Shown in pieces: positions 3,538 to 38,278 of a stretch of 64,000 nt of DNA (positions within the stretch are counted from its first letter, which is position 1; each line of letters opens with the position of its first letter). The stretch is taken from positions 1,792,001-1,856,000 of the forward strand of contig CBDBMJ010000001.1 of NCBI GenBank assembly GCA_965207455.1. Reading direction: 5' to 3'. Source of the DNA: Bdellovibrionota bacterium (GTDB taxonomy: Bacteria > Bdellovibrionota > UBA1018 > CAIPTA01 > JAALKR01). Made by a program: the position numbers and the translations under genes. The notes under the pieces are model-generated. The model was not told where the DNA came from. It was given only the letters and a program-made list of their open reading frames with translations, and ran no database searches.

Positions 3538-4089
3538 ATTATTTTCACTCCTCCTAAAAAGCAACTGTATCTCTTATTAACTAAATTTGTAAAATTTCAG
3601 AACTTAGAGAATCATAATAAATACTATACCCACAAATAAGGCTACCTTTCCACCCCTGTAAGGATTTGTTAGAGTTTACTTATAAATGCTGCTTGCAGGC
3701 TCTCCGAATCGCATAAAGCAGCCATCAAGACGGCACCACCACCAGCAGCAGCCCCAGCCACCAACCCCTCGCCCCTTTGCACAGCGATTTTGCCGGTGTA
3801 ACTACCAGGGGAAAATGTCGGCACAGACGCGTCAGAGGGGAGTTTAATTTCTAGTAAAGCGGGGGTTTTCAGGACAGCGTTTATAGCTGTCTTCTGCCTC
3901 TCAGAAGGCTGTGCCCTGCCTCTAGCGGTCTATTTTCTTTTTTGAGGGCTACGGGGTGTGGATATCTTTTTAAGATAGGATGAGGTGTTTGCGTTCAGGA
4001 GATGTGGCCGGCTGGTCTACCCTGTAGTTGAGTTACATTGTTTTACTGATGGTTCTGGGCAGGTTCTTTCTTTCTGTATTTGGTTTGGT

Positions 4090-4695
4090 GGTCATTCCTC
4101 ATACTTAGGAGTTGGAGTTCCATTTGATGGTATTTGGATATTAGGTTTCGTTTCATAGTAGTTGGAGTTCAATTTCAGGGTTTGAGGAGTTAGTATTGTT
4201 ATTTTGGGTTTTGGGCGGTGTTATGTTTCCGCTACAAGTCAAGTTCAATCATTCGTTTTATGGGTATTGAGGGAGTTTAAATTTACGGAGGGCATCACTT
4301 TCTCGCTCCCACCTTTCACAAAGACAAAGTTACTTCTTCTCACTGATATGCCTAAGGGTGTGTGTTTGTTCTTTAGGGAGGTGTGGTTGTGTTTCTTTTA
4401 TCAGGCTCAGTGGTTTCATTCTTGTTTGGATCCTGGGAATCATTCCGACACTCCCCAAGACCACACCCCCGCTTCTTTCCTGATTAGGAGTTAAGCGTTT
4501 AGCGTGTGTGGTATGTTTTGCTCCCTTCGACGACTGTTTTATTGACTGCCCTTCGTGCAGTTTTTTTTTACTTCATAAAATTTTCATTCCTCTCTCCGAC
4601 CCTTTCAGATCATTTATTGCTTGGCTTCTGAGAATCATTTCGACACTCCTCAAGGAACACACCGACGATTCATAACCTTACTTATTGGATTCCCG
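4090..4695. repeat. Long non-coding direct repeat, copy 1 (partner 19003-19533)
   Basis: Near-identical at offset 14913; this copy has an extra ~80 bp. Confidence 0.95.
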
Positions 4696-16468: not shown

Positions 16469-16524
16469 AATTATTTTCATTTTATCCTTTATAAAAAGTA
16501 AAAATTATTTTATCATATACATGT

Positions 16525-18087
16525 ATGGAGAATCTTCCTAGGATAGTTGAAAATGAAACAAACCCCGAACTCTTGAAGGGATATTTTAAAATTTCTTGGA
16601 ACGCTAGTTTATCGCTAGATAAAGAAAATAAAAGATTGCGGTCCGAGAACGCTGCTTTAATGAAAAAGAAAGTAGAAGAAGATCAGCAAAATCTTAAATT
16701 AGATAAAGACCTTGCGAACTTCAAAGAAACTTATGACAAATTGAATAGAATTTTTTTTGGAAAAAGTAGTGAAAAGCGTCCTTCTTCTAGGCAGAGAGAT
16801 ATGGAGAGGCAGCTCTCGCTTCAATCCGAAAGCCTAGCCCCTTCTCCTAAGTCAGAAGAAATGGATAGATTGGAAGAAGTTCAGGTTGATCACATGCTAA
16901 CAAAGGAAGAACTTGCTAAAATAGCAGAAGAATATGGCTACCCTAAAGATACGAAGTGGGAGTTTCTAAAAATTTTTGATGAATCAAACGAAGTGGGGAT
17001 AAGAGTTAAAAGTTTTATAAGAAAAAAGCACCGTCTTTCTAAATATCGTCTTATAGCTAGCAAGGGTACTGAAAAAGAAATTATCGTTACAGCATCTGGT
17101 CCTAAAAGAATAGTCCCTGGTTCTAAATACTCTCCTGATTTTGCTGTAGACGTTGTAGCGCAAAAATATCTCTATCATCTTCCCTTAGAAAGAATTAGGC
17201 GTATGATCGCCTCAAAAGGTTTGAGTATAGGTGTAAAGACTCTTTATTCCCTTTCCTTTTTTGTAAAAAGCCACCTAGAAGATGTGGCGCAGAGAATTCG
17301 ACAAGAGATTGGAGAATGCGGACTCATACTGCACATGGATGAGACTCCTTGGCCAATCAATAACTCTAAAGAGAAAAATGGGTATATGTGGACTGTGAGT
17401 AATCAAGGAGGAAGTTATTATAAGTTTGCTTCAACGAGGTCGGGGGCTATTGCCAAAGAGCTCTTAGGCTCCTATCGGGGGCCTGTGCTAACAGATGCGT
17501 ACCCAGGCTATAACGCCCATTTTAAATATATAAAAGGCGTAACACTTGCGCACTGTTGGGCCCATGCAAGAAGGAAGTTTACCGATATAGAGAAAAACTA
17601 CCCCGAGGAATGCGGTCAAGTCTTAGATTTACTTTCTGAACTTTTTGTTGTGGAGACAAAAGCGCAACACTACACCCATCTGTTAGAGCTAAGGCAGAGC
17701 AAATCAAAGAAAATAATAAACCAGCTTAGAGACTTGTTGTATGAACTAGCCCCTAAAACACGAGCAGAGAGCGAGTTACAAAAAGCCATTAACTATGTCC
17801 TTAAACATTGGAGTAATCTTGTGCTATTTCTAAATGATCCCAAAATTCCTCTAACAAATAATGAGGCAGAGAGAGCCATGCGCCACTGTGTTATGGGAAG
17901 AAAAAACTTTTACGGATCCAAAACAGCAAAAGGAGCAGAAACAGCGGCCATACTCTACACTGTCATAGAGAGCTGTAAAAAAGTGGAGCTTGACCCTAGA
18001 AACTATATCTCAATGGCCATTAAAAAAGTTCTCAATGGTGAAACTCCTCTAACACCTCTGCAATACGCCAAACATATCCGCTCTTAG
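16525..18087 (+). CDS. tnpC: IS66 DDE transposase TnpC
   Basis: FGKSSEK, HMDETP, TDAY, HCWAHARRKF, NNEAERAMR. Confidence 0.97.
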   Translation: MENLPRIVENETNPELLKGYFKISWNASLSLDKENKRLRSENAALMKKKVEEDQQNLKLDKDLANFKETYDKLNRIFFGKSSEKRPSSRQRDMERQLSLQSESLAPSPKSEEMDRLEEVQVDHMLTKEELAKIAEEYGYPKDTKWEFLKIFDESNEVGIRVKSFIRKKHRLSKYRLIASKGTEKEIIVTASGPKRIVPGSKYSPDFAVDVVAQKYLYHLPLERIRRMIASKGLSIGVKTLYSLSFFVKSHLEDVAQRIRQEIGECGLILHMDETPWPINNSKEKNGYMWTVSNQGGSYYKFASTRSGAIAKELLGSYRGPVLTDAYPGYNAHFKYIKGVTLAHCWAHARRKFTDIEKNYPEECGQVLDLLSELFVVETKAQHYTHLLELRQSKSKKIINQLRDLLYELAPKTRAESELQKAINYVLKHWSNLVLFLNDPKIPLTNNEAERAMRHCVMGRKNFYGSKTAKGAETAAILYTVIESCKKVELDPRNYISMAIKKVLNGETPLTPLQYAKHIRS

Positions 18088-19002
18088 AGTACAAGGGCGG
18101 TCAAAAGACTAAGTTACTATTCTTCAGATGAAATTGTTTCATATACATCATCAAATTTATGTTGAAGCTTACCAGTACGTTTTAAAATTTCATCTTTATA
18201 CTTCTTGCTTCTCAGTAATGGCTCAAAATAGAATGAATATTCCGTTTCTATATTGACCTCTTGGTTGTACCTTGGACCGACAGAATCAATTCTTTTTTTA
18301 TTAAGCTTATATAATTCATTCAAATCACTCATTCAATCTCCAAATTAATCATATTGCTAGTGTCCATGACTCTCAAACACTTTCCCCGATATCTTCAAAA
18401 ATCTACCCTCTAACTACTTGACCCTAATCTTAGCCCAAAAATAGCTCTTTAGTCTTTTTCCAATTAGCCTACGGGTTGCTGTTGAGGCACCATGTTCGGC
18501 GCACTATTTGTTGTGTGGCTTTCATTTAGTTGAAAGAGTAAGACATCGACAACACACCAACCCCGACCAATCCCTACCCCCCCTTCACCCACATCAGGTT
18601 TATAAAGCCCGGCTGGGGGGGGGCACTGGCACTGTGATGAGAGCTACCGGCCCTCTAATGGGATTACCGGGCATTGATGGGAGCCACTGGCATTCTGATG
18701 AGGTCTACTAACGCAGGGGCATTGAAGTTTCTTGTTTAAGGGTTATTTAAGGGATTTGTAGTACAGGGTGTTTATACAGCAGCTCCGGTAGCAGCGACCT
18801 TGACCACCACACACTAATCCCAACCCGGTACCAGCATTAGCAATCCCGGCACCACCAGCACCAATCCCGGCGGCAACAACACCATCAGCAGCCCCGGCCC
18901 GGCCCGCCCCTCAACCCATTCCGGCCCCTAGAAGCCCGCAGTATTTCTTTGATCCATCACCGCCACAAGTCATGTTTATTTATTTCCTATTTGGATCCTA
19001 GG

Positions 19003-19533
19003 GGTCATTCCTCATACTTAGGAGTTGTAGTTCCATTTGATGGTATTTGGATATTAGGTTTCGTTTCATAGTAGTTGGAGTTCAATTTCAGGGTTTGAGG
19101 AGTTAGTATTGTTATTTTGGGTTTTGGGCGGTGTTATGTTTCCGCTACAAGTCAAGTTCAATCATTCGTTTTATGGGTATTGAGGGAGTTTAAATTTACG
19201 GAGGGCATCACTTTCTCGCTCCCACCTTTCACAAAGACAAAGTTACTTCTTCTCACTGATATGCCTAAGGGTGTGTGTTTGTTCTTTAGGGAGGTGTGGT
19301 TGTGTTTCTTTTATCAGGCTCTGTGGTTTCATTCTTGTTTGGATCCTGGGAATCATTCCGACACTCCCCAAGACCACACCCCCGCTTCTTTCCTGATTAG
19401 GAGTTAAGCGTTTAGCGTGTGTGGTTTGTTTTGGTCCCTTCGACGACTGTTTTATTGACTCCTCTCTGAGAATCATTTCGACATATCTCAAGGAACACAC
19501 TGACGATTCATAACCTTACTTATTGGATTCCCG
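19003..19533. repeat. Long non-coding direct repeat, copy 2 (partner 4090-4695)
   Basis: Near-identical to copy 1. Confidence 0.95.
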
Positions 19534-19635
19534 CACTAAAGATTACAGAAAATAATTATATCTTTCACAAAAAGACATTAAGAAATTTATAAATGAAAAA
19601 ATCAGTTCGACTCGCCGTCGCACATGAGGCACATA

Positions 19636-21952: not shown

Positions 21953-24103
21953 CTACTTCTTCCCACTGATTGCCCTTCGGGCAAGCGGTCTTTCTTTTGC
22001 CATATAAAGCGCACTTTGCCAAAGTGCTAGGGCTTTTTGGATCATTTCTTTTGCTTTTTTGGGGTAGAGGTGTTTTACGTCTTTATCATAATCTTTCGTT
22101 TTATAGCGATACAGGATCGCCAGATTGTCCTCTGGATTAAGAGCTGCCTCTAAATTATTAACATATTTATTTCTATTCCAATTATTAGTATTAAGCCTAA
22201 GCAAAAATTCTTGTCCAATTAATTTCACAAGCATATTTGTATGTATAAACATATAATCACTGTCTTTATACGATGAGTGCAAAATATTCCTTCCCAACAT
22301 GGTGTTTTCTGCAGATATACCCATCATACCAAGCATAATGGGCATAATATCTATACTGGAAGTTACCTCTTGCACAGTTTTTTGTTTTTTAAACCGGAAC
22401 TGAGGAGAATAAATAATCAATGGAACCTTTAAAAAAGAAAGGTTATGATATGTGAACCAATCAGGAACATGCTCGGCTCCTTTCAAACTTATCCCATGAT
22501 CACCCACTAATACAAAAACTGTTTTATTATAATCCTTTCGCTTCTTAAAATCTTCAAAAAATACTCGTAGGCTGTAATCAGCAAACCGCAAAGCATTAAG
22601 CTCCTCAATGGAAGAAAAGCCATTTTTTTCTAATGTTTTTTTATCTACATGAATCGACATAAAGCCTAAATTCTCTTTGGGAATAACATAAGGAGGATGG
22701 TGGCTCGCTCCTTCTAAAAAAGTGAGAAATGGTTTGTTTTGATTAATTTTTCCTGCTCCATGCTTTTCCTCAATAATACGCTGTACCTCCTTATATAAAT
22801 GGAAGTCAGAAACCCCCCAAGCATTTACTTCCGGGTATTTATAATTTTTTTTTTCAAGCAAGTGGATATTATCTATGTTTTTCACTGTTGTCTTGTAGTC
22901 TAACCAAGTGAAATCATGAGATCTAAAAAAATATTTTTCATGCTTTTTAAGGGAATTTGCTAGGCTTGGCAATGGATAAGAGGGAATTTCAAGAAATGGA
23001 ATGCTCGCTATTATGGAAAAAACACCATGAATACTAGATGGAGAGTAAACTGAAGCATGGAAATTTTCAAAAAATATGGCCTCTCTTCTTCGGATAAGTT
23101 CCTTCAAAAACGGAGTAGGATTTAGTGGATTTTTCAATGTCTTATAATCAGAATAAGATTCCAGAAAAATGAATACAATATTGGAATTGGGATCAAGATA
23201 AGGCGTCTTTCTTATGGGCCTTTTAAATAAATTGAGTATCTTTGCTAGATCTACAGACTCACCAGGTTCACCACCCTTTAGTGCTCTAGGATCAGGGGCT
23301 TTTAATTTAAGATGACCTTGGACTCCTGCAAATACTTTAAAGAAGTCACTAGGAAAAAAAGTAGCTTTTTCTTTTATTTTAGTGTCAAGTAAATGTTGAA
23401 AAGTATTAAAGCTCATGGGCAAATAAAATGGATCTTGCAATGAATAACTACGATAAGAATTAAACGGTCGCCTAACATCAATACCAATGACTCCTAAAAA
23501 TAAAAACTCCAAGCATAATATGGAATAAAGAGCCTTTCGCTTAGGTAAATAAGAAGTGGTTGTAATCCGATTAAACGACTGAAAACCAAACCTGTCAAAT
23601 AAACCCTTACCTGTAAATACAAGCCTCTTTAAAATAAAATATAAGAAACAGGAAAGGAGCAGCCACCCGAAAACAATCCATACTATAGGATAGGATTTTA
23701 TCACCATCGATAGAACAGCCAGTGGGCTTTTTAAGATGTAAATGCTATCATAACCCAATCTTTTCTCCGTATATCCGTATGTGCCAAAATCAATGAGAAA
23801 AAACAAAAATATGAACGAGAAAAGAAAGGTATGAAAAAACAGAACATTCTTATTGCTATAGATATATTTTTTAGGAAATAAATAATCTCGCCAGAAAAAA
23901 GCTAAGCACGGCATGGAAAATAGAAGACTCCAACGCAGATCAAATCTAGCACCATAGAATAAGCAGTTCAGCAATGCATTCTGATTGCGGAAAAGAGTGC
24001 TCAGATCAGCTGAAAAATAAAACAGCATAATAAAGCGAAAAACCTGCTGTACAAGAAAAAACAACAAGATAATTTTTATGCAGGAATACAACCTCATGTT
24101 CAT
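21953..24103 (-). CDS. LTA synthase / sulfatase family membrane protein
   Basis: TM N-terminus with GARFDLR; IFLES, HHPPY, GDHG, SSIDIMP. Confidence 0.9.
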   Translation of the reverse strand: MNMRLYSCIKIILLFFLVQQVFRFIMLFYFSADLSTLFRNQNALLNCLFYGARFDLRWSLLFSMPCLAFFWRDYLFPKKYIYSNKNVLFFHTFLFSFIFLFFLIDFGTYGYTEKRLGYDSIYILKSPLAVLSMVIKSYPIVWIVFGWLLLSCFLYFILKRLVFTGKGLFDRFGFQSFNRITTTSYLPKRKALYSILCLEFLFLGVIGIDVRRPFNSYRSYSLQDPFYLPMSFNTFQHLLDTKIKEKATFFPSDFFKVFAGVQGHLKLKAPDPRALKGGEPGESVDLAKILNLFKRPIRKTPYLDPNSNIVFIFLESYSDYKTLKNPLNPTPFLKELIRRREAIFFENFHASVYSPSSIHGVFSIIASIPFLEIPSYPLPSLANSLKKHEKYFFRSHDFTWLDYKTTVKNIDNIHLLEKKNYKYPEVNAWGVSDFHLYKEVQRIIEEKHGAGKINQNKPFLTFLEGASHHPPYVIPKENLGFMSIHVDKKTLEKNGFSSIEELNALRFADYSLRVFFEDFKKRKDYNKTVFVLVGDHGISLKGAEHVPDWFTYHNLSFLKVPLIIYSPQFRFKKQKTVQEVTSSIDIMPIMLGMMGISAENTMLGRNILHSSYKDSDYMFIHTNMLVKLIGQEFLLRLNTNNWNRNKYVNNLEAALNPEDNLAILYRYKTKDYDKDVKHLYPKKAKEMIQKALALWQSALYMAKERPLARRAISGKK

Positions 24104-24394: not shown

Positions 24395-24979
24395 ATGAAA
24401 ATATTGAAAACAAACAAGGGTTTTACCCTAATTGAATTAATGATCGTTGTGGCAATTATCGGAATTTTGGCTGCCATTGCGGTACCAAACTTCCAAAGTT
24501 ATCAAGCGAAAAGTAGACAGTCAGAGGCTAAAATCTCTCTAGCAACTGTTCATAGCCAAGAGATCGCTTTTAGCGCAGAGTTCGGCGGCTATGTCACTGC
24601 ACTAGACGCTATTGGTTATATACCAAGCACTTCCGGTGCAGCTGTTGCAATAGCCAGTACTAGAGGATCGCAGTACTATACCGTTGGTTGGACTGGTGAT
24701 GCCGCACCTAATTCTATGCCTGCCAATGCTCCATACTCATTCCTTACAATCCGTTATTGGAGAAACTCAGGGACTAATTCAGGAGATGATGGTGCTACAG
24801 GGTGCAAAAATGGTGCTGTTCTTAGCGATGCATTATCGGCAATCAACACTGCAAAAGTGAACGGAATAACCCAAGCCTTTACTGTCGGTGCTGCAGGAAA
24901 ACCCGGAACTAACAATGCTTGCGATGAGTGGACTATAAATGAAAATAAAGTTCTTGCCAACAACGTACGTAACCTATAA
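24395..24979 (+). CDS. pilA: Type IV major pilin
   Basis: [33 protein letters not shown]-terminal Cys pair. Confidence 0.93.
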
Positions 24980-25006
24980 CGTCAAGATTCGTACAGTCTA
25001 AAAACG

Positions 25007-25056
25007 AAAAGCCAGAACACTCGAAAGCGAAACGCTTCCCTGTTCTGGCTTTTTTT
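25007..25056 (+). terminator. Hairpin and U-tract after pilA
   Basis: AAAAGCCAGAACA...TGTTCTGGCTTTTTTT with inner AAGCG-AAA-CGCTT stem. Confidence 0.75.
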
Positions 25057-25101
25057 ATTCTGTCACCCCCATAACACATACAGTGTATCCTATAAACACA
25101 A

Positions 25102-25809
25102 ATGAAAATCATCAAACACTCAAAAACCTACCGTGTAAACTTCCTCCTCTTTCTTCTCGCCCTAATCACCGTCAGCCTATACCAAGAACAACGCCCCCAC
25201 TTTCCCCTAAAAGATAAAACAACCTTTACCTTCAACGAAGGCTTCCCCTCCTTTTCCCCAGAATCCATACGCCTCTTAAGTTTTGGCTACCGCTTTGTCT
25301 GGAGTAGCCTCCTCTGGATCCGCTTCCTCCGCCACACACCTCCCAAAAGCATGGGATCCGCAGAAGTAAGCTGGATCTTCGTGGACCTAAACGCCATCTC
25401 CGTAATCGATCAAGACTTTTCCCCCGTCTATACCCACGGCGCACTCTTCCTCTCCGTCATCACCGAAGATAAAAACGGAGCAAGACTCCTCCTAGAAAAA
25501 GGATCGAAAAAATACCCCAACTCCCTGCGAATACATTCTGCCCTAGCCTACCACTACCTCTTTGAACTCAAGGACCGCAAAAAAGCAGCCCAACAATACC
25601 AAATAGCCTCCCGGATTCCAGGAGCACCAGACTACTACGCCCTCCTTGCCGCAACCACCATGCAAAAAGAAGGGAACACAATGGCAGCTATTGCCTTCTT
25701 ACAAGATATGCGAGAAAATGCAAAAGACCCCAAAGTACGAAAAAAGCTCCTACAGAAAATACACAACCTAGAAATGGGCTCAACCGAAAGAAGCACCTAT
25801 GAAAAATAA
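25102..25809 (+). CDS. pilG: PilG-like (Myxococcus-type) TPR-like pilus accessory protein
   Basis: Between pilA and the ABC genes; LSFGY..SSLLW, LLEKG, YHYLFEL. Confidence 0.7.
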   Translation: MKIIKHSKTYRVNFLLFLLALITVSLYQEQRPHFPLKDKTTFTFNEGFPSFSPESIRLLSFGYRFVWSSLLWIRFLRHTPPKSMGSAEVSWIFVDLNAISVIDQDFSPVYTHGALFLSVITEDKNGARLLLEKGSKKYPNSLRIHSALAYHYLFELKDRKKAAQQYQIASRIPGAPDYYALLAATTMQKEGNTMAAIAFLQDMRENAKDPKVRKKLLQKIHNLEMGSTERSTYEK

Positions 25810-26719
25810 ACCAGCCCTAGAATTTATCAATGTCTCCAAAACATACCGCTCCGGATTCCTCGGCGAAAAAAAACAATCCCTAAAAAACTTGACCCTCTCC
25901 GTACCCACCGGCTCAGTCTTTGGCTTCCTCGGCGCTAACGGCGCTGGAAAAACAACGACCATAAAAATCACCCTCGGCCTTCAAAAACCCACGTCAGGCG
26001 AAGTAATCGTCCTCGGAAAAAGCAACTCTAGCAATAAAGCCAAAGCCCTTATCGGCTACCTACCCGAACGACCCACCTTTCATCTGGATCTTACTGGCAA
26101 CGAATTCCTAAACTTCCACCGTAACCTCTTCGGCAACCGCATCCAAAATAAACCCCAACTCTCTAACTCCCATCTGCTAGCTCTTGTTGGTATCCCACAA
26201 ACCGCCTCCACACTCCTGCGAGAATTCTCCAAAGGCATGCTCCAACGAATCGGCATCGCCCAAGCCCTCATCAATTCTCCGGATTTGGTCATTTTGGACG
26301 AACCCATGAGCGGACTCGACCCCATCGGAAGACGCGACGTACGCGAAATCATCTCCCAACTCGCACACGAAGGCAAAACCATCTTCTTTAGCAGCCACAT
26401 CCTAAACGACGTCGAAAGCCTCTGCGACCAAATCGCCTTCCTCCAATCCGGCGAACTCAAAGTCCACGGAAAAATAAACGACATCCTGAAAAAAAGATCG
26501 TCAAAAGAAATCATCTTCAAAAACATCTCAGCCCACACCATTAAAAACTCCCCCATCCTACAAAACTCCACCCAATCCGGCGACTCCTGGACCCTACTCC
26601 TCCACAACCCCGAACACACCCAATCCACCCTCGAAACCATCTGGCAACAAAAAGGGGAACTCATCTCCGTAACCAACCAACAAATCAGCCTAGAAGAAGA
26701 ACTCTTCCCATCACTATGA
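25799..26719 (+). CDS. pilH: ABC transporter ATP-binding protein, PilH-like
   Basis: GANGAGKTT, FSKGMLQR, LDEPMSGLDP, SSH. Confidence 0.88.
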   Translation: MKNKPALEFINVSKTYRSGFLGEKKQSLKNLTLSVPTGSVFGFLGANGAGKTTTIKITLGLQKPTSGEVIVLGKSNSSNKAKALIGYLPERPTFHLDLTGNEFLNFHRNLFGNRIQNKPQLSNSHLLALVGIPQTASTLLREFSKGMLQRIGIAQALINSPDLVILDEPMSGLDPIGRRDVREIISQLAHEGKTIFFSSHILNDVESLCDQIAFLQSGELKVHGKINDILKKRSSKEIIFKNISAHTIKNSPILQNSTQSGDSWTLLLHNPEHTQSTLETIWQQKGELISVTNQQISLEEELFPSL

Positions 26720-27495
26720 AAAAATACCTACAATCCGCTACCCTAACCATCGCCCTCACCACCCTCAGAGGCTTCACCCGAGACCGCATCTTCTATGCCG
26801 TCCTCCTCGTCGCCCTACTCCTCATCGCCTTCTCCTACTCCCTCGCCGGACTCACCTTCATCGGCTCCTATAAAATACTCATGGACTTCGGCTTCACCGC
26901 CATCTCCCTCTGCGGAATCCTCATCTCCATCTTCGTAGGCATCATCTCCGTATCCAAAGAAATCGAAAACAAAACCATCTACACCATTCTCGCTAAACCC
27001 GTCCACCGCTCCCAATACATTCTGGGCAAATACCTCGGCTGTAGCCTCGTAGTCCTCATCGCCCACCTAATAATGTCCCTCTCCCTCCTAACCGTCATCT
27101 GGATCATCGGCATAAAAACCTCCACCGGCCTCTACCCCTGCTTCTACCTCATGACACTCGAAAGCCTTCTTATACTCTCCATCGCCCTGTTCTCCTCCAT
27201 CTTCTCCTCCAGTGTTCTTGCCACCTGCCTCACCCTTTTGTTATTCCTTATTGGAAGGAGTGCTTACTTCTTTCATTCTGCCTCAGAAAAAGCTGAAGGA
27301 CTCATGCGCTATGTTTTTCGGATTCTCTACGACATTCTCCCTAACCTCGAACGCTTTAATCTCCGAGAAATGGCTGCCTACTCCAAGCCCTACCCCGACA
27401 CCCTTCTCCTCGACAGCACCATCTACGCCCTCGCCTACACCACCCTCTTTCTCACCCTAAGCACCATTCTTTTCATCCGACGGGACATGCCATGA
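26716..27495 (+). CDS. pilI: ABC permease, PilI-like
   Basis: KEIENKTIYTILAKPVHR..YILGKY, LPNLERFN, F.RRD end. Confidence 0.85.
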   Translation: MKKYLQSATLTIALTTLRGFTRDRIFYAVLLVALLLIAFSYSLAGLTFIGSYKILMDFGFTAISLCGILISIFVGIISVSKEIENKTIYTILAKPVHRSQYILGKYLGCSLVVLIAHLIMSLSLLTVIWIIGIKTSTGLYPCFYLMTLESLLILSIALFSSIFSSSVLATCLTLLLFLIGRSAYFFHSASEKAEGLMRYVFRILYDILPNLERFNLREMAAYSKPYPDTLLLDSTIYALAYTTLFLTLSTILFIRRDMP

Positions 27496-28283
27496 TCGAC
27501 CCCCAAACCATCATCCAAATCGCCTTCATCACCTTTGGTTTCATCATCGGCAGCTTCCTCAACGTCTGCATCTCCCGCATGCCCAAAGAAAAAAGCGTGG
27601 TCTTCCCCCCCAGCGCCTGCATGACTTGCCAAAAAAACATCCCTTGGTACTGCAACATCCCCATTCTCAGCTACCTCTTCCTCCGCGGCCGCTGCCTCTA
27701 CTGCAAATCCCGCATCCCCTTCCGCTACCTGCTAGTCGAATGCATCACCCCCGCCCTATTCCTCCTCTGCCTGCCCTACCCCTATATCCTCTGGCCCTTT
27801 TACGTTTACTTTCTCTCCTCCCTCGTCATTGCCACCTTTATCGACCTCGAACACTGGATCATCCCCGACAAGATCACCCTCCCAGGTATCCCCATAGGAA
27901 TCCTAAGCTCCCTCGTCCACCCCTACCCTTTTATTTTGGATTCTGTGCTTGGCATGATATTTGGTGGCGGATCTCTCCTAGTCATTGGCATGATCTACGA
28001 GAAGATGAAAAAAACAGAGGGCATTGGTGGTGGCGACATAAAATTTCTCGCCATGGGCGGCGCCTTCCTCGGCTTCAAAGGCATCATCCTCACGCTTCTT
28101 ATTGCTTCCATCACTGGCATGATTATTGGACTCATCACCATGATCAAAACAGGAAAAGGCGGCAAAACTGCCATCCCCTTCGGTCCCTTCCTCTCCGCTG
28201 GAATGCTCATCACCTTTATCTGGGGCACCCAAATCTGGGACTGGTACCTCGCCCTCACCAACCCTCAATCCCTCTTCCAATAA
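27492..28283 (+). CDS. pilD: Prepilin peptidase, copy 1
   Basis: GSFLNVCI, two CxxC, IDLEH, GGGDIK, IPFGPFL. Confidence 0.97.
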   Translation: MIDPQTIIQIAFITFGFIIGSFLNVCISRMPKEKSVVFPPSACMTCQKNIPWYCNIPILSYLFLRGRCLYCKSRIPFRYLLVECITPALFLLCLPYPYILWPFYVYFLSSLVIATFIDLEHWIIPDKITLPGIPIGILSSLVHPYPFILDSVLGMIFGGGSLLVIGMIYEKMKKTEGIGGGDIKFLAMGGAFLGFKGIILTLLIASITGMIIGLITMIKTGKGGKTAIPFGPFLSAGMLITFIWGTQIWDWYLALTNPQSLFQ

Positions 28284-28336
28284 CACACCCAACAAACCCA
28301 CGGCGCAATGCCGCACGCAACAAGCTGGACACGTCA

Positions 28337-29773
28337 TTAAAATTTTCTAGAAAATTTCCTAAACGATTTAACCAGCTCATAAGTAAGAAACGCGTTTGCT
28401 ACTATCTGCAAAAAATTCCAGAAACCAAACTCACCTACAGGCAATTTAATGGGAATCACTAAACGACCAAACAGGTCAAGACAATCCCAAAAACCAACAC
28501 AACACTCAAAACGAAACATATGGATAAAAAGAAATACAATATTAATAGCTAATTGCCAAACAAAAACCCTAAAAAAAGCTGTACCAAAATAACTAAAGAG
28601 CTTCTCAATAGATAAAGTAAATTTATCCTGAAGATTGCCACCCGTCTTCCCCAGTTCATGGAGATATTTATCATGCTCTTTCGTATGAAACATCACGGCA
28701 GATATCGTATCATTTTGTTTTATGGCGAAGTGCTTTAATTGCAAGAAAGTTTCTCTGCTAAATGCATTCTCGCCTTCAATATTTATTAATCCTCTTTTTT
28801 CGTTTATATATTTAAGTGTGTTTTCTTCATCAAGAGATTCATTCCCTCCAGTAGAAAAATCCGTTCCTTCGATAACGCAATTATCTATCTGAAGTACAAA
28901 TTCTTTAGTAAAAAAAATATCTCCTAAAAAAATATTTTTTATATTTCCCGACAACTTAAAATGACTCCTAAAAAAAGAAAGGGTGAAATCCAATCGCTCA
29001 CGAAACTCACTCATTGTAGTGTCTAATTTATTAAAAATACATTCCCTGAAATTACAAGACCCGAGGAATTGCGTATTAAAAAATCTTGCATCATCTCGAA
29101 AATAAGATTTATAAAATCCAGCATTTTCTGCAAATCTTGTTCTCTCAAAAGAAACTTTCGATAAAAATATAGTCTCAACAAAATCTACTTCTTTTTCAAA
29201 CTCTACCTTTTTAAAAAAAGAATCTCCTGTAATAATAGTATTACTAACGCTCACTGGTTTCAGAAATTTTTTATCAGACAAATAAATGCCACCTATAATA
29301 ATGAAATTATCAAAACATACCTTTCTTGAAATTTTCGCACTATCCAATATAATATCTCCCACAATAATGCAATTATCTAAAGGCACATCCATTGAAATAA
29401 GTTCTTCAACATCAGACTGTCCTATATGAACGAATTTTTTCTTAGAATCTAGCTCTTCTTCCATGATAATAAATATTTTTTCAGAAAGGATTCCTTTATA
29501 ATTAAAAATTTCTTTTATATGTGCGCTTATTTCAATCACCTCATATTCAACACCATTAAAAACTACTTCTTGCGAGTTCAAGGAAGGATCGGAATACTTG
29601 TTTTTACTCTCATCTTCATAACGAAACTCTAACTTACCACTCGATTTATCAAAAGTAACATTGGTTAATCCCTCTCTATCAACCTTTGATATTCCGTATT
29701 TTACCTCGCTCGTTTCTTGTTCCATAAAATATATCTTACAAAATACTATTGTAAAAAACAATTCTTTATTCAT
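28337..29773 (-). CDS. Pentapeptide-repeat protein with C-terminal TM helices
   Basis: F-periodic repeats (SFERTRFAENAGFYKSYFRDDARFFNTQF); hydrophobic C-terminus. Confidence 0.75.
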   Translation of the reverse strand: MNKELFFTIVFCKIYFMEQETSEVKYGISKVDREGLTNVTFDKSSGKLEFRYEDESKNKYSDPSLNSQEVVFNGVEYEVIEISAHIKEIFNYKGILSEKIFIIMEEELDSKKKFVHIGQSDVEELISMDVPLDNCIIVGDIILDSAKISRKVCFDNFIIIGGIYLSDKKFLKPVSVSNTIITGDSFFKKVEFEKEVDFVETIFLSKVSFERTRFAENAGFYKSYFRDDARFFNTQFLGSCNFRECIFNKLDTTMSEFRERLDFTLSFFRSHFKLSGNIKNIFLGDIFFTKEFVLQIDNCVIEGTDFSTGGNESLDEENTLKYINEKRGLINIEGENAFSRETFLQLKHFAIKQNDTISAVMFHTKEHDKYLHELGKTGGNLQDKFTLSIEKLFSYFGTAFFRVFVWQLAINIVFLFIHMFRFECCVGFWDCLDLFGRLVIPIKLPVGEFGFWNFLQIVANAFLTYELVKSFRKFSRKF

Positions 29774-29838
29774 CTATCACCTTAAAAAAAGAGTAAGTGT
29801 TTCTCACAAAGAAACCATTAAGTTCTTGGAAAACTAAA

Positions 29839-29873
29839 TATCTATTGTCCGATTATCAGACATCGCACCAACA
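29839..29873 (+). repeat. R motif copy 1 (palindromic core)
   Basis: TATCTATTGTCCGATTATCAGACATCGCACCAACA. Confidence 0.9.
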
Positions 29874-29970
29874 GGAACACGCCCCAGAGCAGACCTCATA
29901 ATCCCTCCAGCAACAAAGCCTACCTCTATTCACACCTCTCACAACACACAGACAAACCTCGGAACTCTTC

Positions 29971-29999
29971 TTGACTAACCCATGGCTTTGGTTTATGTT
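29971..29999 (+). promoter_or_regulatory. Sigma70-like promoter in the R-motif leader
   Basis: TTGACT-17 bp-TATGTT; TTGACT is conserved in the homologous leader at 40063. Confidence 0.55.
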
Positions 30000-30052
30000 A
30001 AAACATAATCAATCGGCTAATTAACAGAAGGCGTAAGAGAGGGAACTGAAGA

Positions 30053-30223
30053 ATGAGAAAAAAAAATAACAGCGCAACGAAAAAAGAAGACCCTGAAGAA
30101 GTTCAGAGAAGCCTTGAACAGCTCATTATTGACATAAAAAAGAAGCGACCCAAGTTCCGAAAATTCTCAAAAGAGCAGCGAGAATTCTTTATAAGGGAAG
30201 CACTAGAAGAGTATGATTCGTAG
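30053..30223 (+). CDS. 56-aa charged protein, not in the ORF track
   Basis: MRKKNNSATKKEDPEEVQRSLEQLIIDIKKKRPKF...EALEEYDS; GAGAGGGA upstream; decayed copy at ~38170-38278. Confidence 0.6.
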   Translation: MRKKNNSATKKEDPEEVQRSLEQLIIDIKKKRPKFRKFSKEQREFFIREALEEYDS

Positions 30224-30231
30224 TACCCATT

Positions 30232-31101
30232 GTGTTAGCAAGTAAATTAAAAAGAAATAAGAAATACAGTCTTTCTCAAGGAATGATCTTTGAGATACCC
30301 AGTTTAAAACTTGATTTTGATAAAGCAAAAAAAACCATTAAAGAGCTTTATCCCGAGGCAAGTCTTGATAATGTAAAGTATGGACTCATATTAACACAAT
30401 CATGTGACCTCGTTCATGATAAGTTTTTTGAGCAACAAGGTGGAACTCTAGATAAAGATGAAAAAAATAACTACAAATATCGACTTCCAAAAATTCCTCA
30501 CATTACATTTTGCTTGTTGGAGCCAATAAATTCTTATATTTCAGAATTTTTAAGTAAAAACGAATCAAAATTTCTATTCAAAATAGAAGACCCTGTTCCC
30601 ACTAACAAAACCACTAATGTCCTTTCCTCGAGCAAAGCATTAAAACTAGTTTTGAGAGAATTTGGCAGGTTCTTTCAAAATAATCACCCTTGGGCATTTT
30701 TCATCACAATTCAATCAAAGGATAGAAAAGAATACTACTTTGTTAACTTAACAAAAATTCTCCCTCTAAGAATAATTCACTATAGCTCAATCCTCCAGAA
30801 CTCTAAATTTCAGTTAACAAATGAATTTTCTAATAAATTAGCATGGAAATTGGCGACCCTATATGGGAGAATCGGGACTAAGGATTATTCAAGAAAAGCA
30901 ATCACAGAAATCATCAAGGATATTCTTGAAATCTCCCAAAAAGAGTTTTCTAGCTTAACCGATGATTCTATAGACATAGAACCTTTAGACTTTGATGCTC
31001 TTAAAAAAAATCTAGAAAGAGAACGTAACTTAAAAAAAAGAAATGAAATCTTACAAGATCTGCTAGAGGAACACTCCATAACAAATATGAAAGGCATATA
31101 A
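30232..31101 (+). CDS. Hypothetical protein with ILTQSCDL motif
   Basis: LSQGMIF, ILTQSCDL, LYGRIG; follows the 56-aa ORF. Confidence 0.7.
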   Translation: MLASKLKRNKKYSLSQGMIFEIPSLKLDFDKAKKTIKELYPEASLDNVKYGLILTQSCDLVHDKFFEQQGGTLDKDEKNNYKYRLPKIPHITFCLLEPINSYISEFLSKNESKFLFKIEDPVPTNKTTNVLSSSKALKLVLREFGRFFQNNHPWAFFITIQSKDRKEYYFVNLTKILPLRIIHYSSILQNSKFQLTNEFSNKLAWKLATLYGRIGTKDYSRKAITEIIKDILEISQKEFSSLTDDSIDIEPLDFDALKKNLERERNLKKRNEILQDLLEEHSITNMKGI

Positions 31102-31134
31102 GACCGAAGAACTCATACACTACATTTTTCGGCT

Positions 31135-31648
31135 CATCTACACCATTCTCGCCAAACCCGTCCACCGCTCCCAATACATTCTGGGCAAATACCTCGGCTG
31201 TAGCCTCGTTGTCCTCATCGCTCACCTAATAATGTCCCTCTCCCTCCTAACCGTCATCTGGATCATCGGCATAAAAACCTCCACCGGCCTCTACCCCTGC
31301 TTCTACCTCATGACACTCGAAAGCCTTCTTATACTCTCCATTGCCCTGTTCTCCTCTATCTTTTCCTCCAGCGTCCTCGCCACTTGCCTCACCCTTCTAC
31401 TATTCCTCATCGGAAGAAGCGCCTACTTCTTTCACTCCGCCTCTGAAAAAGCCGAAGGATTCATGCGCTATGTTTTTCGGATTCTCTACGACATTCTCCC
31501 TAACCTCGAACGCTTTAATCTCCGAGAAATGGCGGCCAAACCCTACCCCGACACCCTTCTCCTCGACAGCACCATCTACGCCCTCGCCTACACCACCCTC
31601 TTTCTCACCCTAAGCACCATTCTTTTCATCCGACGGGACATGCCATGA
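31135..31648 (+). pseudogene. pilI: 5'-truncated duplicate of pilI
   Basis: Matches 26976-27495 with a 6-bp deletion; lacks the N-terminal third. Confidence 0.9.
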
Positions 31649-32436
31649 TCGACCCCCAAACCATCATCCAAATCGCCTTCATCACCTTTGGTTTCATCAT
31701 CGGCAGCTTCCTCAACGTCTGCATCTCCCGCATGCCCAAAGAAAAAAGCGTGGTCTTCCCCCCCAGCGCCTGCATGACTTGCCAAAAAAACATCCCTTGG
31801 TACTGCAACATCCCCATTCTCAGCTACCTCTTCCTCCGCGGCCGCTGCCTCTACTGCAAATCCCGCATCCCCTTCCGCTACCTGCTAGTCGAATGCATCA
31901 CCCCCGCCCTATTCCTCCTCTGCCTGCCCTACCCCTATATCCTCTGGCCCTTTTACGTTTACTTTCTCTCCTCCCTCGTCATTGCCACCTTTATCGACCT
32001 CGAACACTGGATCATCCCCGACAAGATCACCCTCCCAGGTATCCCCATAGGAATCCTAAGCTCCCTCGTCCACCCCTACCCTTTTATTTTGGATTCTGTG
32101 CTTGGCATGATATTTGGTGGCGGATCTCTCCTAGTCATTGGCATGATCTACGAGAAGATGAAAAAAACAGAGGGCATTGGTGGTGGCGACATAAAATTTC
32201 TTGCCATGGGCGGCGCCTTCCTCGGCTTCAAAGGCATCATCCTCACGCTTCTTATTGCTTCCATCACTGGCATGATTATTGGGCTCATCACCATGGTCAA
32301 AACAGGAAAAGGTGCCAAGACTGCCATCCCCTTCGGTCCCTTCCTCTCCGCTGGAATGCTCATCACCTTTATCTGGGGCACCCAAATCTGGGACTGGTAC
32401 CTTGCCCTCACCAACCCTCAATCCCTCTTCCAATAA
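31645..32436 (+). CDS. pilD: Prepilin peptidase, copy 2
   Basis: 263 aa, two substitutions (I->V, G->A) versus copy 1. Confidence 0.95.
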   Translation: MIDPQTIIQIAFITFGFIIGSFLNVCISRMPKEKSVVFPPSACMTCQKNIPWYCNIPILSYLFLRGRCLYCKSRIPFRYLLVECITPALFLLCLPYPYILWPFYVYFLSSLVIATFIDLEHWIIPDKITLPGIPIGILSSLVHPYPFILDSVLGMIFGGGSLLVIGMIYEKMKKTEGIGGGDIKFLAMGGAFLGFKGIILTLLIASITGMIIGLITMVKTGKGAKTAIPFGPFLSAGMLITFIWGTQIWDWYLALTNPQSLFQ

Positions 32437-32450
32437 CACTCAAAACACCC

Positions 32451-32484
32451 TTGTCCGATTTTCAAACATCGCACTAACAAACAC
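32451..32484 (+). repeat. R motif copy 2
   Basis: TTGTCCGATTTTCAAACATCGCACTAACAAACAC, 14 bp after the pilD stop. Confidence 0.8.
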
Positions 32485-32648
32485 CCCTCCCAAAGCAAAC
32501 CTCACAATATTCACACAGCTCAACACAGCAGGTACCAATATTGCTAGCAGCACGTCTCCTTATATTTTGATATAATTTCATTATGCCGTGGTCATCCGTA
32601 AAACAATTTGCTATAAACGTTTTAGTGTATAAATTTACAGGATAAACA

Positions 32649-33431
32649 ATGCAAAGCAAACTGGTAAAAAAATGTAAAAACTCAAACCTAATTGAGGCAT
32701 CGCTGACTCTTCTTGGAGAACCCAAAAAATACCAAAAAGATTCCCACCTTGGATTCAGGGAACATATTAAAAAATACCTGAGAGAGGAAAATAACTTATC
32801 CAACTTAAAATCAGAACGCATCAATAGTGCTCGCCTAACCAGAGAAGACGAAAACGGAATGGTCCTACCCTATTTAGACAGGCAGTTTACTATAAAAGAG
32901 AAAAACAAAACTTACCGAACAGGCCACCAAATCGCAGGATTCCATACAACTCACGAAGGCGATAATAACCGATACACAACTTATGACAGTGAAATCGCCC
33001 CGTATATAGAAAGTTTTATAGAAAAAATAAACGAATTCAACAACCGATTTAATGTTATAGAAATGGTTTTCTGCTATGTAAATAATTTTCTATTCCCTCG
33101 GAATGGCTTTATGCTGGACAAATATTTTGACCTTGCCATTAGAACAGGGATCGGCTCACAACATGGAGTCCAAGAGACCTTGTTCTCTTTTTTATATCCT
33201 CTGGATGGAAACACCGTGAAAATATCACTCCGCGGATACCCCCATGATAAGGATCAAATTCGTATCGTAGTTGAAACAACTGGTATAAAAAAGATTGAAC
33301 CCACATCCATTTCCGATTACAGGAAAATAATGGAGGAATCTAAAATCCTAAAGGATATAACAAAAGCTCAATTTTTCAACCTTACCAGCGACGAAACAAA
33401 ACATAAAATACTAGGAGCAAAATATGAGTAA
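32649..33431 (+). CDS. TIGR04255-like protein
   Basis: NSNLIEA near N-terminus, YTTYD, FCYVNNF, QFFNLTS; ~260 aa. Confidence 0.6.
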   Translation: MQSKLVKKCKNSNLIEASLTLLGEPKKYQKDSHLGFREHIKKYLREENNLSNLKSERINSARLTREDENGMVLPYLDRQFTIKEKNKTYRTGHQIAGFHTTHEGDNNRYTTYDSEIAPYIESFIEKINEFNNRFNVIEMVFCYVNNFLFPRNGFMLDKYFDLAIRTGIGSQHGVQETLFSFLYPLDGNTVKISLRGYPHDKDQIRIVVETTGIKKIEPTSISDYRKIMEESKILKDITKAQFFNLTSDETKHKILGAKYE

Positions 33432-33921
33432 TCCCATCACAGCCGAACCAATGCTCCTTCCAAAAACAATTCATAGTGATGCGAAAGGCAACATTAAAGA
33501 CGACAGCTACTTCTATAGCGAAGCAGACCTCCCCACCCTTCTCTCTCAACCACTACAGGAGCAAAATTCTCTTTCTGAATCTCCCGAAGCAATTAAAAAA
33601 TCTGTACGGGATTTTTCTTTTGACACAGAAAAAAACAATCCTGTAACCATCACATCTTCCGTAGTTGGAAAATGGAATAATTACGAAGAACTCTCTGATT
33701 TATTGGCAGGGATTAATTATAATGAATTTTGCAAGCGAGCCACTACCAGTGAAATGTACTGGAAACCAATCATTGAAGAACGCCTGGAAGAACTGTATCC
33801 AGAAAATATGTCTGAAGAATTAAAGAAACTAAAAAGTATAAATAGAGCAACACGAGATATATTAGAGAAAATCAAAAAAGGAACCAAGAGAAATTTTTTT
33901 AGAAAAATTTTTCGCAAATAG
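33424..33921 (+). CDS. Hypothetical protein
   Basis: Overlaps upstream stop, AGGAG RBS. Confidence 0.7.
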   Translation: MSNPITAEPMLLPKTIHSDAKGNIKDDSYFYSEADLPTLLSQPLQEQNSLSESPEAIKKSVRDFSFDTEKNNPVTITSSVVGKWNNYEELSDLLAGINYNEFCKRATTSEMYWKPIIEERLEELYPENMSEELKKLKSINRATRDILEKIKKGTKRNFFRKIFRK

Positions 33922-33936
33922 AGACTACTGAAGTAA

Positions 33937-34623
33937 ATGGCAACGTTAAACTGTGGAGAAAATAAGTCTCCAGCATCTCATTACAGAAATCACATATCAG
34001 ATTTAAATATTCTTTTCTTCAAAAAATTTTGCGCATACTGCTGGACAGCCGATAAGGCAGAAACTATTGATCACTATAAGCCAAGGAAACATTTTCCCAA
34101 TCTTAAAACTGAATTCAGAAATTTACTTCTTGTCTGTGCCACGTGCAATTCAAAAAAAGGAGATTATCACCCCGAAGCAAAAAACAGAAAAATATATAAG
34201 GACGAAACGCATTACATATTCAATTGTCGCGAGCATGATATAGGAGAATTTATAAAAGTAAGCAACGATGGGAAGATCTCATCCAAGAAAAATTTACGGA
34301 AAGAACGAGAACAAGTTGCTTTTTTTATTCGGATATTTAATCTAGAAAAAACAGAAACGAAAAGTACAAGAAAGGAACACATAGAAATATTAGAAGCAAC
34401 AAAAGAAGCGATGCAGTTGTTAAAAAATAGAGCTCGCTGTGAGAATAAGGCAAGCCTTGAACGGATTTTAGATACAAATATTGGGCTTATTGCTACCAGA
34501 TTTTTATTCTTTCACCTTTTAAATTTAAAAATACCAAGCGAGTTAAAGGAAAGAATAGAAAAAAAGAGAAGAGAACTTCTATGCGCACAAAGACTAAACC
34601 CAATTATCTCAAAATTGATTTAG
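33937..34623 (+). CDS. HNH endonuclease
   Basis: CAYC..IDHYKP..NLLLVCATCNSKKG. Confidence 0.9.
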   Translation: MATLNCGENKSPASHYRNHISDLNILFFKKFCAYCWTADKAETIDHYKPRKHFPNLKTEFRNLLLVCATCNSKKGDYHPEAKNRKIYKDETHYIFNCREHDIGEFIKVSNDGKISSKKNLRKEREQVAFFIRIFNLEKTETKSTRKEHIEILEATKEAMQLLKNRARCENKASLERILDTNIGLIATRFLFFHLLNLKIPSELKERIEKKRRELLCAQRLNPIISKLI

Positions 34624-34731
34624 AAACTATTTGCAAGCTTATCGATGTTGTTGTAATATCAAAGAAGGCTGGATGAAATGCAAACATTATTTTAAACTAG
34701 GAATAAACCCTAATTACTTCGGAGGAACGCG

Positions 34732-34929
34732 ATGACTGAAACTAAAAAGACAGAAGAAAAGATACACAGACCATCCAAGGAGCATACCGTTGTAGATGAT
34801 TCTGAGATAACTTTTGAAAAAGACCCCTACAAATACGGACAGAAAATAGGAAGAATAGCAGTGAGGGAAGCCTATATAAAAACTTTGAGAAAATTTCGTG
34901 ATGCTAAAAAACTTCAAGCAAAGTCATAA
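34732..34929 (+). CDS. Small protein, paralog of 39627-39866
   Basis: GGAGG RBS; F.KDPYKYGQ versus FHDDPYEYGR. Confidence 0.7.
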   Translation: MTETKKTEEKIHRPSKEHTVVDDSEITFEKDPYKYGQKIGRIAVREAYIKTLRKFRDAKKLQAKS

Positions 34930-34968
34930 GATGCACTCTCACCAAACCTTAAACATGTGTAAATAATT

Positions 34969-35553
34969 ATGCTAAGATTCCCCTGGAAAAAAACCACCAT
35001 GTTCTCCAAAGATCATTCGTCGAAACACCTCGACGAGATCCAACTCCGCAACCGAAAAAACATCCTGAAAGTCGCAGCCATCCTCAGCCTCCTCCTACTC
35101 CTCTACCCCGTAATAAAAGAAAAAAGCTACCTCTTCTCCATCCAAAACCAAGCCCGCACCCTAACCAAAGAAATCCTAAACGCCAGACTCCAAGCCACCA
35201 AAACCCGCAACCCAACTTCCCTCACACTCCTCAACCCACAAACATGGCAATACAACGAATTCCCACAAAAACACGACTGCGACGGAACACCCAACCCCAA
35301 CACAAAAAAAAACCTCCCCTTCCCCGACTTCCAATGGCGCGCCCTCCTCCTCAAATCCAATAACCCCACCGGCATCGGCTCAGACATCCAACAACTCTGC
35401 TTCCACCCCATCCACGGCATCACCCTCAACAACCAAAATCTCTCCTCCCACCAACTCTTCCTACTCGTCTCACCACAAGAAAACACCAAACGACAAAACA
35501 TCCAACAAATCATCCTCTCCAACTCCGGCATCCAAATCCAACCCCTCCAATAA
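34969..35553 (+). CDS. FimT/GspH-like membrane-anchored protein
   Basis: Single TM, then ARTLTKEILNARLQA helix and a Cys pair; same C/A codon bias as the pil genes. Confidence 0.55.
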   Translation: MLRFPWKKTTMFSKDHSSKHLDEIQLRNRKNILKVAAILSLLLLLYPVIKEKSYLFSIQNQARTLTKEILNARLQATKTRNPTSLTLLNPQTWQYNEFPQKHDCDGTPNPNTKKNLPFPDFQWRALLLKSNNPTGIGSDIQQLCFHPIHGITLNNQNLSSHQLFLLVSPQENTKRQNIQQIILSNSGIQIQPLQ

Positions 35554-35630
35554 AATAAGTATTTCACTGGACCTAAAAACTGTTGGCAAATCTGCTAATA
35601 TTGCTGTAATATCAAAGAAAAAGGAACTTA

Positions 35631-36689
35631 ATGGAATTAGAAAAACATAAGCATCTCAAAAAAAATAATATGCCAATCTCATATTTTGAAAATTATGAGA
35701 TAAAAGAAATTAATATCAGCAACCTGAAATTCTTGCTAAAAAGAAGACCTCTAACATTCAAAATTCTTATACCCAAAAATAAAACCAGCCACAGAAAACG
35801 TACACTGCAAACAATATTTCAAGAAATAAATTATATGATTGAAGAAATCGCTGACAATACTATAATTGGTGTCCGTAAAGATATTTTTTTATTGGACTTT
35901 AACATAAAAAAATGCCTGCAGCAATATCAGATATACATGAACTATCAGTTATAATTGGAATTTCTGAGGAACTCGACTGCTCTCAAACAGCAGAAAAAAA
36001 GTTCAAAACCCTCCAAGCATACACGCAGCGCTATGGCTTAAATAAAATTAACATTTCAGAAAGCAACTTTCTAAAAAAAATATCGATTTTTAATAGAGGA
36101 GTGAATTTAGGTATTCAAATTAAAAGGAAACTGCGGCTTCAAGGGAAAGACCTAGAATGGTCCGGACTCACAAACCACAAGAAAGATAGCTCCGATATTT
36201 ATTGCAATGGCCACGGAATATCTCTTAAAGACACAAGTAAAATTATTTAACATAAGAAAAAAAATAGTCAAGGAAGTTTCTGATAAAGTCTTAGCTATCT
36301 TGAAAGAAGGACTGCTTCAAGATCCAGAACATTTCTCCCATAAAATGAAAATTATACTTCAATATGGAAATGTTAAAAAATTCTTTGGGTTCAGCAGTTC
36401 AGCAATGACTTATGTGGGATGTATAAATAAAGAAAATGATATTCATATATCTCCTTTGAACGTATCCTCTGAGAAATCTAAACTAACTCCCACAACTGTT
36501 GGGCTGCAAATAAATTTCTACACAACAATGGATATTTCTCTTCCTTTATCTCAAATAACTATAAAAATTCAAAATCAATTGCGCTACAAGCACCGTACTT
36601 TCAGCTGCGCCCCAGAGGCAAACTTTCATTTACTAAGTTACGGCGATTGGAAGAAAATTTATCCAACTCAGGAATGTCTTGAACGATAA
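35631..36689 (+). pseudogene. Probable restriction endonuclease split into three overlapping ORFs
   Basis: SDIYCNGHGISLK PD-(D/E)xK-like motif; ~43-nt overlaps; convergent with a C5 MTase. Confidence 0.5.
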
Positions 36690-37984: not shown

Positions 37985-38278
37985 TATAACCTATCTCTAT
38001 TCCTCCACTATTACAATAATCGCTATCTTCATAACGTTCACTTAAACTAAATATCTCTCAACCAAGAAAATGCGATGCAAAACCTCCTCCTGAAAAAACC
38101 TAACCTCTCCAATAAATGCTCCTCCCATCGCCACGCATCTGATGCACAGATCTTTCCGACTCGATGCGCTGATCAACTCATTATTGATATAAAAAAGAAG
38201 CAGCCCAAGTTCCAAGAATTTTCAAAGGAATAGAAAGATTTCTTTATAGAGAAAATACTAGAAGAATATAATTCGTAG

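Follow-up and report, generated by a model that had tools for sequence, protein, structure and literature searches.

Why do a handful of adjoining pil genes in a Bdellovibrionota bacterium carry codons that end overwhelmingly in C or A, when pilA directly before them does not? The genes lie in a window of 64,000 nucleotides (assembly GCA_965207455.1, C1:1792001-1856000) from a genome of 2.38 Mb with 40% GC in three contigs. A first-pass annotation, made from the letters of the window alone, had pointed out the skew and attributed it to deamination of a minus strand that is repeatedly single-stranded or copied by mutagenic recombination. We found that the skew is the strongest in the genome, and we infer that it reflects a substitution bias specific to DNA strand and restricted to the surroundings of a gene-turnover hotspot; the pil block would be one arm of this pattern. 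The gene order (pilin, TPR-like protein, ABC ATPase, ABC-2 permease and A24 peptidase) is that of the Myxococcus-type pilA-pilG-pilH-pilI-pilD cluster, with names following the available part of PMC6060248; the TPR match was below the cut-off. The features of the locus, in window coordinates, are as follows.

21953..24103, minus strand: sulfatase-family membrane gene (PF00884), near-normal composition
24395..24979, plus strand: pilA, major pilin (PF07963), unskewed, C+A 0.51
25005..25060, plus strand: terminator-like hairpin and T run, fold -23.9 kcal/mol, missed by a simple terminator scan
25102..25809, plus strand: pilG-like gene, weak TPR, skewed
25799..26719, plus strand: pilH-like ABC ATPase, skewed, with normal patches at about 26080-26095, 26164-26191 and 26275-26296
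26716..27495, plus strand: pilI-like ABC-2 permease, skewed
27213..27345, plus strand: patch of normal composition inside pilI
27492..28283, plus strand: pilD prepilin peptidase (PF06750/PF01478), skewed, with patches at about 27929-28031 and 28094-28127
28337..31101, both strands: inserted low-GC DNA with a pentapeptide-repeat gene (minus), repeat D4 and an unknown gene (plus), mildly shifted by DNA strand
31135..32447, plus strand: duplicate of the 3' part of pilI and the full pilD, skewed, 97% identical to the first copy
32649..34623, plus strand: inserted low-GC genes including an HNH nuclease, mildly shifted
34969..35553, plus strand: orfX, the most skewed gene of the genome, amino-acid usage shifted

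Genes were called with a simple open reading frame caller (1941 genes), and the 1676 with at least 150 codons were ranked by C at third codon positions. The first six places were taken by pilI, pilD, orfX, the second pilD, pilH and pilG (0.65-0.47); the next gene reached 0.42, and the genome mean was 0.19 (SD 0.066). C+A at third positions was 0.82 in pilG, 0.85 in pilH, 0.81 in pilI, 0.76 in pilD, 0.74 in the second pilD and 0.93 in orfX. By contrast, pilA and the genes that the first-pass annotation had labelled lepA, pyrB and carA (0.49-0.53) were unskewed, as it had stated. Among 500-base windows, the six skewed genes also held the highest C-minus-G values genome-wide (up to 0.31); GC content there was about 50%, compared with 40% for the genome, and GC skew was -0.35 to -0.6. 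The onset was abrupt at the pilA terminator: the last 60 codons of pilA had C15 T21 G5, and the first 60 of pilG had C32 T9 G0. Two recurrences of the bias had been proposed farther right; that at 34969-35553 held and is orfX, whereas that at 31135-32440 is the duplicate of pilI 3' and pilD and not an independent case. An assembly artefact is ruled out because the reading frames are intact and a public sequencing run (X1, which may be the source sample) has contigs over all 30 bins, one of them even more C-rich.

At fourfold sites, the pil block (n=616) had frequencies of A 0.196, C 0.669, G 0.042 and T 0.093, compared with 0.312, 0.268, 0.128 and 0.293 in 428 lagging-strand genes and 0.284, 0.177, 0.170 and 0.369 in 390 leading-strand genes. 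The C-ending codon was favoured in every synonymous family, and A was favoured only for Lys, Glu and Gln. The C/A direction originally described was therefore borne out at twofold sites, where both C/(C+T) (0.786 versus 0.351) and A/(A+G) (0.95 versus 0.718) were raised, but not at fourfold sites, where the push is towards C and A falls (0.196 versus 0.31).

The minus strand of the window is the leading strand, making pilA and the pil block lagging-strand genes (dnaA lies on contig C3). We expressed composition as k, in multiples of the genome's own lagging-minus-leading axis, on which ordinary genes centre on +-0.5. Among one-parameter fits to the fourfold sites, this axis performed best (G=13, k=3.37), followed by a C-only push (G=23), the coding-versus-template axis (G=108), GC content (G=203) and an amino/keto shift (G=215); adding a small GC term to the replication axis brought G to 1.8. 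Pure C>T and A>G deamination, which corresponds to the amino/keto shift, thus fits these sites very badly. Amplification was alike in three independent site classes (k of 3.37, 3.29 and 4.09 beyond lagging). Values for individual skewed genes were 3.3-5.2, outside the range of the genome (99th percentile 1.66, 1789 genes) and far beyond the norm of the replichore, with whose sign the bias agrees. The composition of the pil block is the genome's own lagging-strand bias amplified about 7-10-fold in log-odds. A gradient from pilA of the mitochondrial type was not present, the gene farthest from pilA being the most skewed.

The bias was not confined to silent sites. At codon positions 1 and 2, G was below that of relatives in all five genes, and polarised amino-acid-changing sites showed more G>A than A>G (36 versus 20, p=0.044) and more G>C than the reverse (20 versus 8, p=0.036). 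In orfX, the combined content of G, V, E, D, A and W was 0.14, compared with 0.27-0.36 in four orthologues. DNA inserted between the pil genes is nearly normal in composition but leans the same way by DNA strand. On a strand index S, taken on the coding strand of each gene, nine inserted plus-strand genes had an S of 1.6; the figure for 179 low-GC lagging genes was 0.70 (p=0.008), and the two inserted minus-strand genes had values of -2.4 and -1.3. The bias is thus tied to the DNA strand and its sign fits exposure of the minus strand, as first proposed.

The affected genes themselves are native. In the same-family genome G001, pilA, pilG, pilH, pilI, pilD and orfX are contiguous, in the same order and unskewed. 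Matches to orfX were found in 10/10 genomes of the same order and 0/30 others searched, directly behind pilD where annotated; language-model features make orfX a candidate FimT/GspH-like gene, as a lead only. Judged from gene content and order, the block from pilG to orfX is native, and its skew is probably lineage-specific. In a broad control of 314 homologous stretches from 184 loci (overlapping and not independent, and mostly generic ABC ATPases or repeats of one genome), none exceeded an A+C of 0.68 at fourfold sites, compared with 0.77-0.95 here, and no C/A-ending donor appeared among the homologues compared. A metagenome scan returned no close relative (best match 48% over near-full length), and a class search gave one other family member.

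These genes clearly recombine. When 1214 third positions were fitted with a two-state model, it separated a background with 9% G/T from eight patches with 55% G/T (log-likelihood gain 28.8, compared with a maximum of 1.6 in 40 shuffles); the patches of normal composition were 10-130 bases long. Between the two pilI copies, 16 differences clustered at 27213-27294, all synonymous; 14 of these were T/C or G/A, the first copy carrying T/G and the second C/A. The clustered, entirely synonymous differences (16/16) exclude burst mutagenesis and mark imported alleles, so the recombination invoked by the first-pass annotation was upheld and its mutagenic character was not. In run X1, C/A was present in two pilH patches, sulfatase alleles were divergent, the variable middle part of pilA differed (joint 24621->24983) and so did the duplication junction (31132->27337). 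Site-level reading covered 40 of the 948 X1 variants; 37 lay in pilG or pilH, and 23 of these were synonymous (T>C 12, C>T 3, G>A 2, A>G 1, G>C 2, C>A 2 and A>T 1). The patches suggest that short tracts have been swapped with unskewed alleles of near-identical protein. The skew would therefore be lineage-specific, young relative to protein change and subject to erosion by recombination.

To the left of pilA, the sulfatase gene is followed by about 70 kb of defence genes separated by repeats. The 26 island proteins scanned included Avs2, CBASS-type cyclases and E1-E2 proteins, PDC-S06, PDC-S39 and PD-T7-4; at L073:13567-15559, two adjoining oligonucleotide-cyclase genes precede an E1-E2 gene. 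Seven further partial copies of the sulfatase 3' end lie at C1:1764708-1811265, an arrangement that makes this 3' end the growth point, or insertion site, of the left defence array. The 5' quarter of the sulfatase gene was mildly shifted in the pil direction (S of -2.4 in the first 180 codons and -0.5 in the last, a noisy estimate).

Among 4595 windows of 3 kb genome-wide, the most positive was pilG-I (+0.364) and the most negative was C1:1743001 (-0.235), which is the left edge of the island, 70 kb away. Runs of four genes gave the same two extremes. The second strongest plus-strand C/A window (+0.229) was a gene pair at C1:821475-824914, which we take to be fatty-acid-oxidation-like from the N-termini. 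The left arm was locally bounded (+0.05 at C1:1737001). Its genes, namely rodZ, a TPR gene, a DAHP synthase gene (minus), an exonuclease-like gene (plus) and a lipase gene (minus), all track the DNA strand, with an S of -2.9 for the plus-strand gene and +2.8 to +3.3 for three minus-strand neighbours. Orthologues in three relatives were milder, rodZ/pilF there having an S of only 0.1-1.8. Repeat scraps shared the left-arm bias up to 19.5 kb in the window, as in these two stretches.

4001..4500, plus strand: left-array repeat scrap, G/T-rich on the plus strand (G+T 0.64), 99% identical to 19190-19460
19001..19500, plus strand: left-array repeat scrap, G/T-rich on the plus strand (G+T 0.62), of a repeat family found across C1:1746-1813 kb

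The farther left an array gene lies, the more it tends to share the left-arm bias (rho -0.40, p=0.018, n=35; when the two strongest genes are dropped, p=0.07). Each arm has its G/T-rich strand oriented with the 3' end towards the island. Since the array is stacked behind the 3' end of the sulfatase gene, the two arms may originally have been separated by only a few kb.

The explanation that we favour, tentatively and at somewhat less than even chances, is that repeated break or recombination exposure of one strand around the hotspot produced the two-armed skew. The hotspot would comprise the defence island, the insertion site at the sulfatase 3' end and the exchangeable pilA, and breaks would recur there. 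Resection in the 5'->3' direction by an AddAB-type nuclease, followed by recombinational repair or fork restart, would leave the 3'-inward strand single-stranded; the lagging-strand template of forks converging at the island would have an equivalent geometry. Were the same strand exposed again and again, resident genes would drift, and freshly imported DNA (defence genes, pilA and allele patches) would look normal. ComEC and AddAB-type nuclease domains are encoded in the genome. The available part of PMC6786661 describes a matching converging geometry in the bidirectional-resection (single-switch) clusters of yeast, and that of PMC5635113 reports that core genes flanking hotspots of horizontal gene transfer (HGT) recombine more. 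A wider claim is more doubtful still, namely that chronic break-repair or fork convergence writes a converging two-armed bias as a new local regime driving one strand to G.

Several observations weigh against this explanation. The left arm has about half the strength of the right; the chance of the top opposite window falling within 80 kb is about 7%; and the left arm ends a segment (C1 ~1.545-1.75 Mb) of reversed skew, a setting in which an inversion can produce a mirror arm. Near the two ends of this segment, at 1.543 and 1.750 Mb, lie inverted Sel1-repeat genes that could be the inversion ends; IS66 copies were ruled out in that role, those at C1:1521 kb and in the window having the same orientation. 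On the right, the step falls at the pilA terminator instead of having a site of breakage at its centre. Exchange with unskewed alleles removes skew and does not generate it. T>C was not in excess at amino-acid-changing sites (22 versus 21), and protein rates relative to G001 were not raised in any of the five genes. Unpolarised X1 totals over 13 kb pointed in both directions (T>C 170, C>T 215, G>A 130 and A>G 175), and the non-coding D4 repeat beside the second pilD showed G>A 5, T>C 3 and A>C 3, but also C>T 4. We know of no ordinary defence island that leaves such a footprint.

Causes outside those considered here are unlikely. Somewhat less probable still is that origin-derived forks stall head-on at a heavily transcribed pilA and expose the minus strand, their lagging-strand template, from pilG to orfX, the left skew being unrelated or due to inversion. 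The lagging-strand position of pilA, the start of the skew right at its terminator and the amplified lagging composition all agree with this idea. Yet k stayed at or below 1.4 both in the ribosomal-protein/rpoA operon, which is likewise head-on, and in the genes downstream of it. The distance of the most skewed gene from pilA and the existence of the left arm are also left unexplained, and the available part of PMC8510543 reports no orientation effect on substitutions in mismatch repair (MMR)-defective E. coli.

It is just as improbable that selection has favoured a G-rich template strand that promotes recombination at the pilin or island, as proposed for Borrelia vls and the Neisseria pilE G-quadruplex (G4). 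The GC content and skew of the pil block are of the same size as those of vls (49% GC, skew 0.52, in the available part of PMC11499132), pilA and its flanks do recombine, and the C-only push fits the fourfold sites fairly well. Runs of at least three C were slightly in excess of synonymous shuffles (108 versus 99.5, P=0.016), but runs of at least four C, three-tier G4 motifs and G4Hunter windows were not (P 0.11-0.58 over four measures). Moreover, the G-rich strand is the template and not the coding strand, unskewed patches are tolerated, and there are no silent pilin cassettes, pilA matching only two 47-base N-terminal stretches elsewhere in the genome.

Import of the whole pil block from a C-ending donor replicon or lineage, now ameliorated by recombination with normal alleles, has a low probability too. 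The ancestral downstream neighbours have been lost from the block and now lie at C1:324-329 kb, the mosaic patches show that unskewed alleles with near-identical protein exist, and only one other family genome was available for comparison. Against these points, the best matches came from that same-family genome in the same order, none of the 314 stretches approached the composition seen here, DNA inserted later among these genes leans in the same direction, and a donor would merely move the puzzle elsewhere.

Selection on messenger RNA for a C-rich, G-poor and unstructured transcript (for Rho loading, or for lower output of the accessory genes behind pilA) is very unlikely: Rho is present, the sense strand folds weakly (-11.1 versus -17.9 kcal per 100 nt, SD 5.3) and the skew starts at the terminator, but opposite-strand genes track the DNA strand and not the message, the coding-versus-template axis fits badly, orfX amino-acid usage is dragged along, and the pattern was not seen in any relative compared.

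Other candidates were not supported: translational or codon optimisation (ribosomal-protein genes have C of only 0.28 at fourfold sites), a motif-directed, APOBEC-like deaminase (C/T log-odds of 2.1-2.6 in all eight contexts; A/G 0.7-2.2, on small counts), and reverse transcription or a diversity-generating retroelement (PF00078 not found in the genome, which is 94.7% complete). Loss of repair was also dismissed because a genome-wide defect could not act locally; ung (two genes) and mutS are present, and a Y-family polymerase was not found at this completeness. As to a possible integron cassette array, nine tyrosine recombinases are encoded, the nearest at C1:1722 kb and none in the island.

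Compared with known systems, the pil-block bias is a real, strong and unexplained variant of strand asymmetry. It shares with the replication asymmetry of bacterial chromosomes the sign of the replichore and the pattern across site classes, but is 7-10 times stronger, covers about 4 kb of resident genes, starts abruptly and has an opposite arm 70 kb away. In vertebrate mitochondria, heavy/light strand asymmetry gives a C/A-rich coding strand and amino-acid drift in weakly constrained protein. Both features recur in the pil block, which differs in being chromosomal and local, in having three times as much C as A at fourfold sites and in lacking a one-point gradient. As in the resected-break clusters of yeast (PMC6786661, available part), the top strand would be affected left of the centre and the bottom strand right of it; unlike those clusters, the footprint here is compositional and long-term, is filtered by purifying selection, affects T, G and A, has no deaminase motif and is linked to putative breaks. 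Borrelia vls (PMC11499132, available part) and the Neisseria pilE G4 share with it a locus-specific high GC and a skew near 0.5 beside a recombining surface-antigen gene. They differ in that the G-rich strand here is the template, the genes are conserved accessory genes, and there are neither silent pilins nor a clear excess of G runs. HGT hotspots resemble the locus in their variable island, mosaic flanking core genes and competence gene; a strand-composition effect is not mentioned in the available part of PMC5635113. In the open-access literature, we found no published account of comparable skew localised to an operon or to the flank of an island in bacteria.

Bacterial strand bias is usually treated as smooth and replichore-wide. 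A near-saturated block (9% G/T silent background) beside normal sister alleles of nearly identical protein shows how locally and how fast a substitution spectrum can shift: many-fold, within a few kb and in a short evolutionary time. If the skew goes with island turnover, recombination hotspots could be recognised from a single genome; such skew would also confound origin prediction and the detection of gene transfer from codon usage, and would make the chemistry behind GC skew testable at an amplified locus. The two-armed reading, if true, would provide a sequence-only signature of chronic break-repair sites.

A motif search for dif gave 24 matches at 2-3 mismatches, none convincing, and a promoter and terminator scan of the locus returned nothing specific. 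The reversed-skew segment (C1:1545000-1750000) holds the single 16S gene. Skew places the main ribosomal-protein/rpoBC cluster (C1:245667-275156) on the lagging strand, and its composition is of the lagging type. To the right of pilD, a smaller second insertion array (28290-42000) has its own repeats (D4 x4, D5 x3, D6 and D8) and carries an HNH nuclease, a beta-family protein and a type II methylase whose restriction-like neighbour is broken up. A 69-base repeat with an internal sub-repeat occurs in about 12 copies between the left-array modules (C1:1746-1813 kb; window 4590-4700 and 19330-19540). The IS66 element at 15705-18117 has perfect inverted repeats of 24 bases, with 96% copies in the same orientation at C1:1521428 and in reverse at C1:657199.

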